DNA of 64,000 nt. Origin: Gammaproteobacteria bacterium (GTDB lineage Bacteria; Pseudomonadota; Gammaproteobacteria; UBA4575). Below the pieces are notes generated by a model. That model was given only the letters and a program-made list of their open reading frames with translations, did not search any database and was not told the DNA's origin. Every line of letters begins with the position of its first letter. The stretch's first letter is position 1. Shown in pieces: positions 11,680 to 16,567 of this stretch. The DNA lies in NCBI GenBank assembly GCA_028279275.1, contig JANQOB010000020.1:1890-65889 (forward strand), given 5' to 3'. The position numbers and the translations under genes are program-made.

Positions 11680-12306
11680 ATGATTACAAGTAAATTTTCA
11701 GTACTCTTTTTAATAATATTTTTAATTTTGAGTGCAAGTATCTTCGCAGAAGACGATATCCGTTATGTCACCGATGAATTTGAAATCACTGTCCATCGTA
11801 ATATGAGTTTGAATAGTGATGTGGTTGCAGAGTTAAAGAGCGGTACTCCTGTTAAAGTTTTAAAAGCTAACCGTGATGAAGGTTATGTAATGATAGCCAC
11901 TAGGAATGAGAAGATTGGTTGGATGTTGGAAAGCTATCTGCTTGATGAGCCAGCGGGTCGTCAGAAATATGAATCTTTGAAAAAAGAGTATGACCAGCTA
12001 AGAGCGGAATTTGATACTCAATTGCAAGAACGCACTTTAAAACTTTCAACAGAGCTGAAACAGGTTAAAAATATTTCTAAGCGACCACTAGAGATAGAAA
12101 AAGAAAATCAGCAATTGAAAGACTTGCTTCAAAAAGAACGCGACAGGACTGAGATAATTAAACAAGAAAATCGAGCATTTAAGTCTATTCACAAAGACAG
12201 GCAATGGCTTGTAACAGGCGCTCTGATTGCGATTGGGAGTTTAGTGTTGGGTTTGGTTATCACCAAAATTCCCTGGCGAAGACGCAAAAGCTGGGGAGAA
12301 CTATAG
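11680..12306 (+). CDS. SH3-domain protein (YgiM/TIGR04211-like)
   Basis: Signal peptide, RYVTD...LKSGTPV...GW SH3 domain, coiled coil, and C-terminal TM followed by RRRKSW. Confidence 0.85.
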   Translation: MITSKFSVLFLIIFLILSASIFAEDDIRYVTDEFEITVHRNMSLNSDVVAELKSGTPVKVLKANRDEGYVMIATRNEKIGWMLESYLLDEPAGRQKYESLKKEYDQLRAEFDTQLQERTLKLSTELKQVKNISKRPLEIEKENQQLKDLLQKERDRTEIIKQENRAFKSIHKDRQWLVTGALIAIGSLVLGLVITKIPWRRRKSWGEL

Positions 12307-12322
12307 GGTTAAGATGCTTGCT

Positions 12323-12961
12323 CTAAGAATCTAACATTTTAACAGGCAATGATTTAGCATCATTAATCATTGATTCAAGTGAATTTGTATCGGGTATTTC
12401 TTCTACCCGATTTTGCTCAGCATTTGAGTTGGCTAATTTATTATGTAATGCGTTTGCCTCTTGTTGAGCTAAATCTTGTGTTGAATAAATTCCTGCATAT
12501 TCCATCAATGCGGCAAATTGACCATCAATGCCTTTTACACGCATCAAATCCGACATACTGGCCCATTTAAGTATAACGAAATCCTCTATACCAATATGAT
12601 TTGCAACCTCTATACGGCCATCCATATTGCTACATTTTTCAAGTAAATCTTGTGTAGTCGAAATACCTTTATCACGTAGTTTTGAACCAAAATTCTCACC
12701 GATTCCTTCTACCTCCTCCACATCATAACTGCTTAGATCTGCTTTCGATGAAGTATCAACAGTGGTAAGCGTAGTAAGTGGCTCGGTTGTATCTACAATT
12801 TGTTGTGAGTGATCATCTTCATCAAGCTTCTCTCGTCTGTCTGCCTTCAACTCAACGGGTTTTGTTTGGCTAGAGAATTTTGCAAGCCAATAACCGATAA
12901 CAGCTCCTATTAACGCCGCACCTAGCAAACATAGCCACATTTGTAAAATTAAATAGCTCAT
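12323..12961 (-). CDS. Membrane-anchored DUF4332 (helix-hairpin-helix) protein
   Basis: N-terminal TM, VEEVEGIG...KGISTTQDLL, and WASMSDLMRVKGI...YAGI...LA. Confidence 0.82.
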   Translation of the reverse strand: MSYLILQMWLCLLGAALIGAVIGYWLAKFSSQTKPVELKADRREKLDEDDHSQQIVDTTEPLTTLTTVDTSSKADLSSYDVEEVEGIGENFGSKLRDKGISTTQDLLEKCSNMDGRIEVANHIGIEDFVILKWASMSDLMRVKGIDGQFAALMEYAGIYSTQDLAQQEANALHNKLANSNAEQNRVEEIPDTNSLESMINDAKSLPVKMLDS

Positions 12962-12994
12962 TGAAAAAATCTCTCTGTTTTAATTTCTATTTCT

Positions 12995-13345
12995 TTACTT
13001 CTTCTTATCCTCAACAGTAGATGACTCTGTTTGAGGAGTTGGGTTTTCATTTTTGACTTCCGGTACAGCAATAATTAATTCGTTATTAACAATGCGTACT
13101 CCATCAACTTGTTGTGCAATTTCATTTGCACGTGTTTTTATCTCTATGCTGTCAACTTCACCTTGTAAGAAAATATCACGACCATCTGTTGTAATATTTA
13201 TATCATTCAGATTTTGTTCAACAAATGCTGTATGAGTACGTGTATCAATATCGTTTTGAATGACAAATACTTGCGTATAGATACAAAAATATCCGAGCAG
13301 GGCGAATAAAGATAAACCAAATAAAAAAATCAAAGGTCTATTCAT
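12995..13345 (-). CDS. Single BON-domain membrane protein
   Basis: N-terminal TM, then DGRDIFLQGEV...AQQVDGVRIVNNEL. Confidence 0.85.
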   Translation of the reverse strand: MNRPLIFLFGLSLFALLGYFCIYTQVFVIQNDIDTRTHTAFVEQNLNDINITTDGRDIFLQGEVDSIEIKTRANEIAQQVDGVRIVNNELIIAVPEVKNENPTPQTESSTVEDKKK

Positions 13346-13522
13346 CCAAATTCTCCATTACATTTTTACAAGTATTGTATAGCAATGAGGCTTAGAAATT
13401 TTCATTGAAAATATCTTTGTAGTTGATCAATTTAGGAAAAAACAGGCTAGCGTATCTGTTATTTGTTTTCAATAATTAAATAATGAAGGTATTAAATACC
13501 TTATTTCATCTCTGGAGAAGAT

Positions 13523-13747
13523 TTACGAAATATATTTATATTGATAAGAACAAAGAGTGACCTCCCCAAAATATACTATTGAAAATATAGTTTGGGGAAG
13601 CCACTCTTTTTTCATTTTTACTTTTTCTAAACGACGTTTAGACTTGTTACTTTTACGATGTACACCACCTTTGCTAAGCAGTGGATGATTATGCAAAAGA
13701 TTTCTATGCCGAGTAAATTTAACCGGCAGTTTAGTCTTGTCAGGCAT
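13523..13747 (-). CDS. Small basic protein; candidate ArfA-like alternative ribosome-rescue factor
   Basis: AGGAG SD. Residues 1-50 are strongly basic (RNLLHNHPLLSKGGVHRKSNKSKRR...KKEW), and the hydrophobic tail is encoded by a long hairpin. The CDS is well supported; the function is inferred. Confidence 0.65.
   Translation of the reverse strand: MPDKTKLPVKFTRHRNLLHNHPLLSKGGVHRKSNKSKRRLEKVKMKKEWLPQTIFSIVYFGEVTLCSYQYKYIS
13552..13609 (-). promoter_or_regulatory. Long intragenic mRNA hairpin (candidate RNase III or premature-termination site)
   Basis: mRNA AAAGAGUGGCUUCCCCAAA-C-UAUA / UAUA-U-UUUGGGGAGGUCACUCUUU forms 19 contiguous bp plus 4 bp. Two of the pairs are G:U and work only on the coding strand. 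Confidence 0.75.
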
Positions 13748-13782
13748 TGCAATTCTCCTAATTAGTATCTAATAATTAAAGT

Positions 13783-14013
13783 TCAAGCAGCTTCTTTCAG
13801 GAGCGTACCGTCCTGTATTGCCTGGCGAATATAATCCATAAAATACAGAGAATTTTTTTCCGCTACTAGCACCTCGTCACGCATAGTGTTAAGAGGAACT
13901 GGAAAGCTATACATCATTTCACTATAAGGAACAGTCACAGCATAGTACGCTATTCCATTTTGATAACGTAAAAATTTAGCCTTGTTGCTAATGCTTATGT
14001 CATTTGTGTTCAT
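13783..14013 (-). CDS. Small uncharacterised 'FPVP' protein, paralog 2, C-terminal -EAA
   Basis: GGAAGGTGG SD; AKFLRYQNGIAYY...YSFPVPL...YFMDYIRQAI; aligns with 14038-14265. Confidence 0.8.
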   Translation of the reverse strand: MNTNDISISNKAKFLRYQNGIAYYAVTVPYSEMMYSFPVPLNTMRDEVLVAEKNSLYFMDYIRQAIQDGTLLKEAA

Positions 14014-14037
14014 ATTCCACCTTCCTATAAATGAAAG

Positions 14038-14265
14038 TTAAGCAGCTTCACTTTTTTCCAATTTCTCATCCAGTTTTTGGGCATGAGCCTTAATATAAGG
14101 ATAAAAGCGGTTAACCCGGTCTTCATTCAGAAAAACCGACTGACCTGAACCTTTAATAGGTACAGGAAACTTAAAGCCACTTTCTGTGCGGTACCATAGT
14201 TTTCCTGATAGGAAAAACATGAAGCGCACGCTCTCGTTGTTTTCAAGAATTTGATCAAGCTTCAT
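14038..14265 (-). CDS. Small uncharacterised 'FPVP' protein, paralog 1, C-terminal -EAA
   Basis: AAGGAG SD; VRFMFFLSGKLWYRTESGFKFPVPI...FLNED...FYPYIKAH. Confidence 0.85.
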   Translation of the reverse strand: MKLDQILENNESVRFMFFLSGKLWYRTESGFKFPVPIKGSGQSVFLNEDRVNRFYPYIKAHAQKLDEKLEKSEAA

Positions 14266-14334
14266 TTTGTATCTCCTTTTAAAACGTTAAATAAATCCTC
14301 TAGTTGGGTCAGTTAAAATCACAAAAAACAAGTC

Positions 14335-14419
14335 AAAAAAAACCCCGGTGCTCACGCTACCGGGGTTTCTTGGTATTTCCGGAAGGTGAGCTGCACCTTC
14401 CTATAAATTTGGAAGGTAC
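14335..14419 (-). promoter_or_regulatory. Transcription attenuator with mutually exclusive hairpins and an intrinsic terminator
   Basis: Segment 1 (14411-14419) pairs with segment 2 (14393-14401). Segment 2 alternatively pairs with segment 3 (14381-14388). Extended segment 3 (14379-14391) can pair with the terminator 5' arm and loop (14350-14363). The terminator is CCCCGGU-A-GC-GUGA-GC-ACCGGGG-U8. Confidence 0.8.
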
Positions 14420-14575
14420 TTAAGCCATGAAAATATTTTGTATTTTCATTTGTTTAGTGCCCATTTGTTGTGTGTCTATTGCAAGGCGATGCAGTGACGT
14501 ACACTTAAACGGCACAACAGAACGACATGTATACATGGCGTTATTTGAGACTAGTTGTTGCATAAATTTTTTCAT
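14420..14575 (-). CDS. Leader peptide, 51 aa (MKKFMQQLVSNNAMYTCRSVVPFKCTSLHRLAIDTQQMGTKQMKIQNIFMA)
   Basis: Translated by hand. It starts 9 nt after a -10 box, and its TAA abuts attenuator segment 1. It is absent from the ORF track because it is under 60 aa. Confidence 0.7.
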   Translation of the reverse strand: MKKFMQQLVSNNAMYTCRSVVPFKCTSLHRLAIDTQQMGTKQMKIQNIFMA

Positions 14576-14612
14576 CGGCGGCGAACTATACTCTTTTAAA
14601 TCTGTATTGCAA
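14576..14612 (-). promoter_or_regulatory. Sigma70-type promoter with GC-rich discriminator, giving a near-leaderless transcript
   Basis: Minus strand reads TTGCAA-16 nt-TATAGT-TCGCCGCCG-ATG. Confidence 0.7.
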
Positions 14613-14667
14613 TATAAAATGTTTTAAATTTATGTTTTAAATTCTACCGTCTATCTATTAATTTGTA

Positions 14668-14974
14668 TTAGCGATACTTCTTTTCGCAGGCTCTACGTAT
14701 TCGAATTACCGCATCTACACTTTCAACTCCGACCATATGCTCAAGTAAACATTCGTTATATCTACGCTCATCACTCATAATAACTTTTGAGGGACCGCTG
14801 CCGTAATTCTCTTCACAGGCCTCTGCTATAAAGCGACTGGCAGCATCAAGCTTGGCATTGTCGAGATGCTCCAATATACAATCCTCATATGCATAGCGAT
14901 TTTTCGATGACTGCATTTAGGCTAAATACCGCTATGAAAAACATGGTTATTAGCATGTAGAAGCGAGCAGACAT
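14668..14974 (-). pseudogene. Secreted four-cysteine two-repeat protein (VF_A0006-like), apparently frameshifted
   Basis: A signal-peptide ORF (ATG 14974, MSARFYMLITMFFIAVFSLNAV) is out of frame with the YEDCILEH...ACEENY / YNECLLEH...ACEKKY body. Could be a sequencing error. Confidence 0.55.
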
Positions 14975-15041
14975 TTATATTTGAACCGCATTTAGTGAAT
15001 GAGTTCCATAGAATACATCCAGCTAGCGTACAAACACTAGT

Positions 15042-15515
15042 CTAGAGATCTCGAATTTTAAGACGTATATATTCTTGCAGGATATGGTAGCTGTCGCGCG
15101 CCTCATCCTGCGTGATGTGATTGGTAACGAGCTGCCATTGGACATTATTCGCATCGGGAAGATTTTTTTCGAGAGTACTTAGAATTTTTTTACTATCATC
15201 AATACGAACTGCATCCCGGCGCAACTCACTTTGATAGCGGTGTTTAATCATGCTTTGAGAAAAGCGGGTATTGCTAAAAAAGAAAATTAATGCGTATGAA
15301 GTATTTGGATGGTTATTAAATTCAAACTCGTAAGTTTTATGATATGGGGCTTGACTGGCGTATGCATTGACTTTGTTTAGCTTAGATAAAGAAATATTAT
15401 TTTGTATTTGAGTATATTGTGTTTGCTTTTGGTAATGCTGAAAATAGCTACAGCCAGCACACATGACGGCAAAAACAATCATGCAAACATATTTGTAAAC
15501 ATATAATTTATTCAT
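15042..15515 (-). CDS. Hypothetical lipoprotein
   Basis: Lipobox-like CAGC after a hydrophobic stretch; 157 aa. Confidence 0.65.
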   Translation of the reverse strand: MNKLYVYKYVCMIVFAVMCAGCSYFQHYQKQTQYTQIQNNISLSKLNKVNAYASQAPYHKTYEFEFNNHPNTSYALIFFFSNTRFSQSMIKHRYQSELRRDAVRIDDSKKILSTLEKNLPDANNVQWQLVTNHITQDEARDSYHILQEYIRLKIRDL

Positions 15516-15700
15516 TTAAGCCAACCAATGTGTAGAAGGTAACAAAACCCTTCCTGGATAGGGTTAAATGTAAACTACACTTGCTCTAAAAATCATATTT
15601 TAGTGTAGGATAAAGTATCTACACTTCTGTTTATCGCTGATTAAGAGGATTGTATTTCCCGATATATGGTGACTTGTTACTGAGTTATATTTTAAGCAAT

Positions 15701-16567
15701 TTATTTATCGGCACTCTTCGTATGGGCATATTCACGTAGAAATACTGGTAGAGGTTTTTTTTCACCTGGGTTTTGTTGTTCGTGTTTTAGTAAAAAATTT
15801 ATGCGTCCTTCCGTTGAAGGATGTGTGCTCAAGAAATTCGGAATTTCTGTCAATTCTGTTTCGGTATTTTTTATGTACTGGAAAAATTCGGTTGCTCCTG
15901 ATGCGTGCCCATAAAACTTTACTAAAAGTTCACTTGCAAATTTATCTGCGTCAGATTCTTGTTGGCGACTAAAAGATAGATTAGTTATGGCCGCTGTATT
16001 ACCTAAGAAGCTTTGTAAAATATTGGATCCATCAGCGCCAAAGATCGCTAATAAAAAAATCGATACTACTATACTTCTTCCCATGCTCCGTAAAGGGTCG
16101 CGTTTATAATGATGTGCCATTTCATGAGCAAGTATCATGCTCAGTCCATTTTCAGATTCTACAGACGCAAGCAAGCCTTTTGTAATAACGATGTGACCGC
16201 CAGGCATTGCGAATGCATTAGCTTGTGCTTCGTTAGCTATCGCGAGCTGAAACTTATGTTCAACAAAATCTTTACCTGCACTGGTATGTAAATCATCTAC
16301 CAAAGTTTGTAGATACTGCAGGCTTTTTATGCCTTGGTCACTTTCGTCCACAGTGAAAGGCATGATATAGAGTCCATCTTTACTAAATAATTCTTGTTCA
16401 TAATCAATGGGTATATATTTGACTAAGTGATCAGCTGCTAAACCTAAGATGATGACAACTACGATAATTACACCGATTGTGCCAGCGGTAAGTATGAAAA
16501 ATGATTTTAACGGATGCTCATCTGTGACATTGATGCCTTCAGGTGGTTGTGTTGGTGTATATCTCAC
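15701..16567 (-). CDS. M48 family zinc metallopeptidase
   Basis: NAFAMPGG, HEMAH, FSRQQESDAD and FLSTHP motifs. Confidence 0.93.
   Translation of the reverse strand: MRYTPTQPPEGINVTDEHPLKSFFILTAGTIGVIIVVVIILGLAADHLVKYIPIDYEQELFSKDGLYIMPFTVDESDQGIKSLQYLQTLVDDLHTSAGKDFVEHKFQLAIANEAQANAFAMPGGHIVITKGLLASVESENGLSMILAHEMAHHYKRDPLRSMGRSIVVSIFLLAIFGADGSNILQSFLGNTAAITNLSFSRQQESDADKFASELLVKFYGHASGATEFFQYIKNTETELTEIPNFLSTHPSTEGRINFLLKHEQQNPGEKKPLPVFLREYAHTKSADK

Follow-up and report, generated by a model that had tools for sequence, protein, structure and literature searches.

The window analysed here is a stretch of 64,000 nucleotides (nt) from contig JANQOB010000020.1 of a Gammaproteobacteria bacterium (assembly GCA_028279275.1), and its minus strand carries, running from 14612 to 13523, a compact unit that ends in a gene for a small basic protein, designated B3. 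In order along the strand, the unit comprises a promoter, a leader open reading frame (ORF), hairpin arms, a terminator, a conserved box, and the genes for two paralogous proteins, F1 and F2, and for B3. An earlier note, made from the letters alone, had described a promoter, leader ORF, hairpins with terminator, two proteins ending in EAA, a basic 74-amino acid (aa) protein with a hairpin, and three Shine-Dalgarno (SD) sequences; every one of these is where it was said to be. The SD sequences, read directly, are AAGGAG for F1, GGAAGGTGG for F2, and TAGGAG for B3. The features are as follows.

14585-14612, minus strand: sigma-70-type promoter, -35 TTGCAA, 16-nt spacer, -10 TATAGT (sequence match and conservation)
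14576-14583, minus strand: GC-rich discriminator CGCCGCCG, directly after the -10
14420-14575, minus strand: leaderless or near-leaderless leader ORF, 51 codons, MKKFMQQ..., stop TAA (open frame conserved)
14379-14417, minus strand: arms A, ACCTTCC (14411-14417), B, GGAAGGTG (14394-14401), and C, CTCACCTTCCGG (14379-14390) (folding)
14335-14368, minus strand: intrinsic terminator, AAACCCCGG stem, GUGA loop, eight T (fold and near-invariance)
14296-14309, minus strand: conserved box ACCCAACTAGAGGA between the terminator and the F1 SD (19 of 22 loci)
14038-14265, minus strand: F1, 75 aa, ends EAA (phrog_20427, E 1.2e-13)
13783-14013, minus strand: F2, 76-aa paralogue of F1, ends EAA (phrog_20427, E 2e-4)
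13523-13747, minus strand: B3, 74-aa basic protein, residues 1-52 at 13592-13747 (alignments A1 and A10)
13548-13613, minus strand: long hairpin in the 3' part of the B3 frame, about 28 pairs, a candidate RNase III-type site (fold and covariation)

The host genome measures 2.70 Mb at 38% G+C, with completeness 94.7%. Our family sample holds 25 genomes, this one included, and was extended by 16 genomes from other families to 41 relatives; leader and gene order were compared across 22 species loci. B3 is present in 20 of the 25 family genomes and F1 in 21, and neither has a match in the 16 sampled genomes from other families. The order C4 (an upstream gene, without a match in 5 of the 22 loci), leader, F1, F2 where found, and B3 repeats across relatives. 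The earlier note had tied its proposal to the conservation of leader, hairpin, and gene order, and all three recur. The locus is most likely one conserved transcription unit in a family of uncultured Thiotrichales-like gammaproteobacteria. Neither Pfam nor NCBIfam has a match for F1, F2, or B3, and an Rfam scan of 12000-16500 found nothing on the unit, its single chance miRNA match lying on the opposite strand.

The B3 family and the RNA elements within its frame

The first 52 residues of B3 (...RNLLHNHPLLSKGGVHRKSNKSKRRLEKVKMKKEWLPQ) are common to 33 aligned sequences, after which the sequences diverge into variable tails. The long hairpin starts at the codons for KKEW. It folds at -42.6 kcal/mol over a 141-nt stretch (z -6.8), a value that 0 of 200 shuffles equal, and it is retained in 19 of 21 aligned loci, the exceptions being L040 and L046. 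Across these 21 loci, both sides have changed in 12 of the 28 pairs, a count that 0 of 500 shuffles reach and to which all slid controls are inferior. In one locus, L047, the amino acids differ and the hairpin pairing is nevertheless retained, so that selection acts on the RNA.

B3-like frames outside the bacterial family were first met in phage contigs during the study of F1 relatives, and searching with them led to 14 phage loci. A search of viral contigs with alignment A8 was empty because the pattern had been built from bacterial members, and a B3 profile iterated on 80 phage loci that bear F1-family genes reached only 3 loci. In nine of the 13 phage loci analysed, the B3 frame reads into a tRNA-Lys gene on the same strand, within arrays of 8-22 tRNAs. 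The conserved part of the phage frames stops 39-56 codons in, at the onset of the tRNA or of a hairpin plus tRNA, and we infer that 5' processing of the tRNA would leave the phage B3 message without a stop codon. Three diverged phage subgroups (L144-L157, for example L148:6001-6193) run into tRNA-Lys (UUU), always the same tRNA species.

A phage-inclusive B3 profile, run on 400 evenly drawn gammaproteobacterial genomes, found the family in 36 of them, including G000 and G014; G271 was left unscored, here and in the ArfB tally given below. Going by source names, the carriers include sulfur-oxidising symbiont lineages. The names given to the proteins in their sources are all "hypothetical" or "uncharacterized," and ten diverse members have no match in Pfam or NCBIfam. 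Family-wide, conservation is confined to the first 40-52 residues. In all ten loci fetched from outside the host family, the stop codon lies inside or past the strongest local hairpin (z <= -3.7 in six), and in L184 a hairpin followed by a T-run lies inside the B3 frame.

There is, then, a B3 family with a layout of its own and with conserved RNA elements inside its reading frame. A hairpin, an in-frame terminator, and a tRNA-Lys gene, all at one place in the frame, are hard to explain save as mRNA ends that precede the stop codon. The suggestion that the last gene of the unit resembles arfA and brfA in being made from truncated mRNA thus draws strong comparative support from the covarying hairpin, the in-frame terminators, and the phage frames that read into tRNA-Lys.

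The leader and its copies ahead of tRNA arrays

Promoter-like sites in 13000-15200 number 7, against 8.8 expected from shuffles. The promoter match alone is without meaning because the scan yields no excess over shuffles; weight is carried instead by conservation, since a -10 hexamer, a gap of 9-10 nt (9 nt in our locus), and an ATG follow one another in 22 of 22 loci. The GC-rich discriminator CGCCGCCG may point to growth-rate or stringent control. The leader ORF is open in 22/22 loci at lengths of 36-56 codons, while the other five frames mostly contain 1-9 stops; the per-locus chance of an open leader frame is 0.004-0.097. Its ends are conserved and its middle is variable and unalignable. 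That the frame stays open in every locus despite this variability in middle and length argues, indirectly, that the ORF is translated. The leader stop codon is TAG in 17 loci, TAA in 3, and TGA in 2, compared with 21% TAG genome-wide, and occupies a fixed spot adjoining arm A, 55-60 nt ahead of the terminator stem.

Two hairpins, H1 (arms A:B) and H2 (arms B:C), are mutually exclusive, arm B being common to both. H1 has a folding free energy (dG) <= -5 and H2 a dG <= -8 in each of the 22 loci, arms B and C are invariant in alignment A7, and the stretch from leader to terminator folds with z -5.2. The terminator is nearly invariant across the same loci, with a CG-to-UA compensation at an inner pair in three. 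The conserved box is followed in relatives by a boxA-like TTTAACAA. Many relatives carry TTTTAACAA(C/T) between the box and the F1 SD (14270-14300, minus strand), like the 3' half of the boxA of rrn operons; our window has a weaker match to that half, TTTAACGT.

The hairpins of the switchable attenuator envisaged in the earlier note are true alternatives in 22/22 loci, but no pairing that would undo the terminator was found; transcription of the unit solely upon stalled translation, as that note had inferred, is no more than a possibility. By-eye inspection for antiterminator pairing with the terminator arms gave none, and neither H1 nor H2 overlaps the terminator. This, together with the 51-123 nt that separate the terminator from the F1 ATG in the 22 loci, counts against a leader that controls the genes behind it. 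The leader could instead be an independent small gene, for a short protein or an RNA of about 235 nt, that ends at its own strong, invariant terminator, with F1, F2, and B3 transcribed from a separate promoter near the conserved box. Such a promoter is possible because of the 51-123 nt available, which hold the conserved box and often, right after the T-run, a TTGCCY that could serve as a -35 (an idea that there was no room for a promoter ahead of F1 was dropped once the distance had been measured). However, the element lies upstream of F1 in 22/22 loci, including the five without a C4 match, is single-copy in the genome, and keeps its stop codon at a fixed distance from the terminator stem; in the tRNA array of a relative, described next, only about 17 nt separate its T-run from a boxA-like site. 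We regard an independent gene as possible, if somewhat unlikely, and regulation by the leader of read-through into the downstream genes as plausible.

Covariance model R1, which describes the leader, finds one copy in our genome, a copy upstream of F1 in 21 of the 25 family genomes, and a diverged second copy (53 bits) in the closest relative, G014. The second copy has the same design, namely a leaderless 51-codon ORF ending in TAG, two hairpins, and a terminator. Its T-run is followed after about 17 nt by GCTCTTTAACAAT, which we take to be boxA-like, and then by 11 tRNA genes and a GOLLD RNA. In this array (L059, G014:C2:142600-146700) the GOLLD RNA lies around tRNA-Leu and scores 153.5 bits in Rfam against a 150-bit threshold. 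Our genome has no tRNA array and no counterpart of that in L059. A locus from another family, L060 (G026:C120:15300-19800), has two tandem, weaker R1 matches (E about 1e-6), each after a short ORF and both ahead of an 11-tRNA array. On the 80 F1-bearing phage loci, R1 gave only weak matches, the best at 30.6 bits. A literature search listed no paper on leader peptides ahead of tRNA arrays, or on the F1 family.

The leader invites comparison with the attenuators of trpL and pheL and of erm and cat genes, which likewise place a short translated ORF, alternative hairpins, and an intrinsic terminator before the genes they regulate. It differs from them in that its ORF is leaderless and lacks a run of regulatory codons, that no hairpin rivals the terminator, and that its first hairpin directly adjoins the stop codon, which is mostly UAG.

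F1, F2, and phage tRNA arrays

F1 and F2 share 24% identity in alignment, and each covers most of the 75-position phrog_20427 profile. The earlier note had proposed them, under the name FPVP proteins, as new ribosome, tRNA, or RNA-repair associated factors; they are no isolated novelty but members of a broad, unnamed, phage-centred family, and the check it proposed, for tRNA arrays and similar leaders near their homologs, came out positive. A profile search of 1.84 billion representatives found 810 that match F1 at E <= 0.001, and Pfam offered no credible family for the 72 F1 relatives scanned. By tblastn, F1 relatives occur in 20 jumbo-phage records of 344-385 kb, and in Cronobacter phage GAP32 the F1-family gene sits between tRNA genes. 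The family had no match among 398 gammaproteobacterial genomes from outside the host family. F1 and F2 differ from the phage members of phrog_20427 in lying on a chromosome, in being present as a duplicate pair, in ending with -AA, and in their association with B3 and a leader.

Many members of the wider family (P0192-P0238) are tandem two-domain proteins of 130-150 aa, a hint that F1 and F2 work together as a pair. F2 was matched in 14 of the 22 loci and not in the other 8, and the paralogue seems dispensable in several species. In L034:3255-3392 F2 is shortened to 46 aa, in L037 it is without a start, and in L013/L048 F1 is apparently frameshifted near its C-terminus. Of 35 F1 sequences from the bacterial family, 27 end in -AA, as against 2 of 148 in the wider family and 2.3% of long ORFs in our genome; F2 does so in 8 of 12 relatives read. 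The ending may be an ssrA-like ClpXP degron, as the earlier note supposed, but the residue ahead of -AA is E or K, unlike the L of the ...LAA type.

The AF2 model of F1, confident at a predicted local distance difference test (pLDDT) value of 90.9, consists of a short helix, four strands, and a long C-terminal helix; an earlier model from a shallow alignment had been poor (pLDDT 61). Against the PDB the model matched nothing below E 0.6. The top rows, at a template modelling (TM) score of about 0.36, were small beta-barrels of the IF1/eIF1A type, which we did not take as kinship. Matches in BFVD were uncharacterised phage proteins only, and the ESM Atlas, with scores of 0.76 and 0.75, provided nothing to follow.

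The F1 family is carried by 80 viral contigs, whose loci contain 1009 tRNA genes in 1.44 Mb. The F1-family gene lies <=500 nt from a tRNA in 44 of the 80 and <=2 kb in 53. Random segments of the same phage loci do so in 33% and 50% of cases, respectively; the local enrichment is thus modest, and what stands out is that these neighbourhoods are tRNA arrays throughout. F1 and F2 probably act on translation or on tRNA.

These data also bear on the possibility that the unit was domesticated from a tRNA-array module of phage or mobile origin. Such a module would at first have sustained translation while host defences cleaved tRNAs, tRNA-Lys among them, and in this bacterium it may act likewise against tRNA-targeting toxins, not as a general backup of trans-translation. 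The tRNA-rich loci of F1 relatives, the joining of phage B3 relatives to tRNA-Lys, the absence of the F1 family from the 398 genomes outside the host family, and the similar leader ahead of a tRNA array with GOLLD RNA all speak for such an origin. The rate of 33% within 500 nt of a tRNA among random segments, however, leaves the local enrichment modest, our genome lacks a tRNA array, and the unit is syntenic and core-like in its family, set among ordinary chromosomal genes. We therefore think a domesticated defence module unlikely.

The flanking genes have no ties to translation: DUF4332, SH3_3, M48 peptidase, YbjQ, and TraB/GumN. Upstream, at 14668-14916 on the minus strand of the window, is an 82-aa protein near the four-cysteine NCBIfam family VF_A0006 (58.1 bits against a cut-off of 65), which adjoins the leader in 17 of 22 loci. 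Its frame reaches further upstream in relatives, adding a hydrophobic stretch, so the protein may be secreted. Past B3 comes a gene (12995-13345, minus strand) for a BON-domain protein whose N-terminus carries a membrane segment; most relatives have this gene in synteny, and the protein is much longer there, at about 250 aa compared with 116 aa here.

B3 as a candidate ribosome rescue factor

ArfA and BrfA are made from truncated mRNA, according to PMC8012679, and PMC13159725 describes the same arrangement. Because its layout matches that of ArfA and BrfA, B3 most likely serves in ribosome rescue and is translated from non-stop mRNA, its relatives then forming a new, unnamed family of ArfA-like rescue factors. 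The first 52 or so basic residues of B3 would occupy the vacant mRNA channel of a stalled ribosome, and the bound protein would then recruit a release factor. Cleavage of its message at the long in-frame hairpin would deprive it of a stop codon. With transfer-messenger RNA (tmRNA) working, B3 would be tagged and destroyed, and it would accumulate only on failure of trans-translation. Translation and termination by ribosomes on the leader would set read-through into F1, F2, and B3. Taken jointly, with B3 as a rescue factor from non-stop mRNA, F1 and F2 as proteins of the tRNA-array type, and a leader that tunes read-through, this reading has in our estimate a probability of roughly 55%.

The rescue background of the genomes can be stated briefly. 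Our genome encodes tmRNA (tag ANDDNYALAA), SmpB, and just two genes with an RF-1 domain. None of the 25 family genomes has a short ArfB-type RF-1 gene, and the Pfam model of ArfA, PF03889, matches 0 of the 41 related genomes, the 25 family genomes among them. PF03889 does not match B3 at E <= 1, nor any of ten diverse members of the B3 family, and its sole match in a scan of our genome, at E 0.32, lies at an unrelated place. A further search for ArfA in the order of G085 covered that one genome. A canonical Pfam ArfA in another family, L027 (G135:C72:942-1103), has a hairpin and T-run in frame and is a positive example of the design.

Several observations weigh against B3 as a rescue factor. 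BLASTP gives no alignment between B3 and ArfA of E. coli K-12. With hhalign, B3 against ArfA reaches a probability of 0.14%, which rises to 0.67% (E 0.085) once the B3 alignment is broadened; this latter comparison runs colinear over 49 columns. Profile searches of the PDB with B3 returned no ArfA or BrfA chain and no rescue factor. In the absence of a significant BLASTP, profile, or PDB match, B3 is no demonstrable homologue of ArfA. The KGKGS(Y) tract of ArfA, which lies in the mRNA channel and is given in PMC6299226 and present in our ArfA alignment A4, is not found in B3, where the sequence reads KGGVHRKSNKSKRR. Five of the 25 family genomes are without a B3 match, although they are also without ArfA and ArfB. 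Two loci, L030 and L044, have their stop codon within the hairpin loop, L040 has only a weak hairpin, and in 4 of the 13 phage loci no tRNA overlaps the B3-like frame. Finally, B3 shows no avoidance of ArfB (NF006718), which occurs in 16 of 36 B3-positive genomes and in 194 of 400 overall; the latter tally includes the unpublished-flagged G063, G165, G319, and G331, all ArfB-positive and none B3-positive. Mutual exclusion of B3 and ArfB, which had been expected, is ruled out by these counts. A predicted complex of B3(1-55) with the RF2 of its own genome scored 0.00 and is uninformative.

That B3 is instead a small basic protein that binds RNA or ribosomes to a different end, for instance in regulation or as a toxin-like peptide, and that its hairpin is an ordinary 3' element for stability, termination, or autoregulation, would accord with the lack of homology to known rescue factors, with the lack of anticorrelation with ArfB, and with those members in which a stop in the hairpin loop makes cut and full-length products barely differ, but we judge it improbable, given that the frame enters an RNA element in three unrelated ways (hairpin, in-frame terminator, and tRNA-Lys), that the tails are unconserved and yet the structure is retained, and that an ordinary terminator would be expected past the stop codon.

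With B3 taken as a rescue factor, a broader proposal can be framed, for which we see only a slim chance: that phage tRNA arrays and this bacterial family share an undescribed translation-rescue module, made up of a B3-type recruiter of release factors and an F1-type partner. The 3' end of the B3 message would be set by RNase P at tRNA-Lys in phages and by the long hairpin in bacteria, and the output would be gated by tmRNA. A leaderless ORF ending in UAG beside a hairpin switch of SD and anti-SD-like arms would report on the performance of ribosomes or of RF1, and its signal would set transcription of the rescue genes and, in the relative, of a whole tRNA array.

ArfA, ArfB, ArfT, and BrfA were each reportedly found by genetics in one model organism. 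If B3 is what it appears to be, it is a rescue-factor family recognised by gene design alone, present in about 9% of sampled gammaproteobacterial species (36/400) and in phages. The phage fusions of B3 to tRNA-Lys would be a new route to a non-stop message and would add ribosome rescue to the functions of phage tRNA arrays. The leader would exemplify coupling between a leaderless ORF and a terminator, and the F1 family, a very common nameless protein of tRNA arrays, gains a first functional context.

Of the known systems, ArfA (PF03889; E. coli and other proteobacteria) is near B3 in size, at 72 compared with 74 aa. Both have about 50 conserved, basic N-terminal residues, a hydrophobic variable tail, and a long hairpin in the 3' part of the coding region, and their motifs are colinear: LLHDPLF in ArfA and LLHNHPLL in B3, a basic tract, and a W just ahead of the hairpin. 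Unlike ArfA, bacterial B3 stands in an operon with F1 and F2 behind a leader, and phage members read into tRNA-Lys. ArfT of Francisella tularensis is a small basic rescue factor of 40 aa from a genome without ArfA and ArfB (PMC6299226); phage forms of B3, if cut at the tRNA, would come close to that length at about 39 aa. The ArfT tract KKGGSTNKK resembles KGGVHRKSNKSK of B3 by eye, a comparison made with the motif as quoted in that paper. The ArfT message is reported there as not truncated, unlike what we propose for B3 (PMC6299226). BrfA of Bacillus subtilis is small, has its mRNA shortened by an in-frame terminator, and works like ArfA while being unrelated to it in sequence, as PMC8012679 describes. 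Some B3 members share a BrfA-like trait, an in-frame hairpin with a T-run (L184); BrfA is reported as confined to Bacillus, unlike B3. Further small rescue factors, invisible to sequence searches, may exist, as the same source notes (PMC8012679), and B3 would be one such family.

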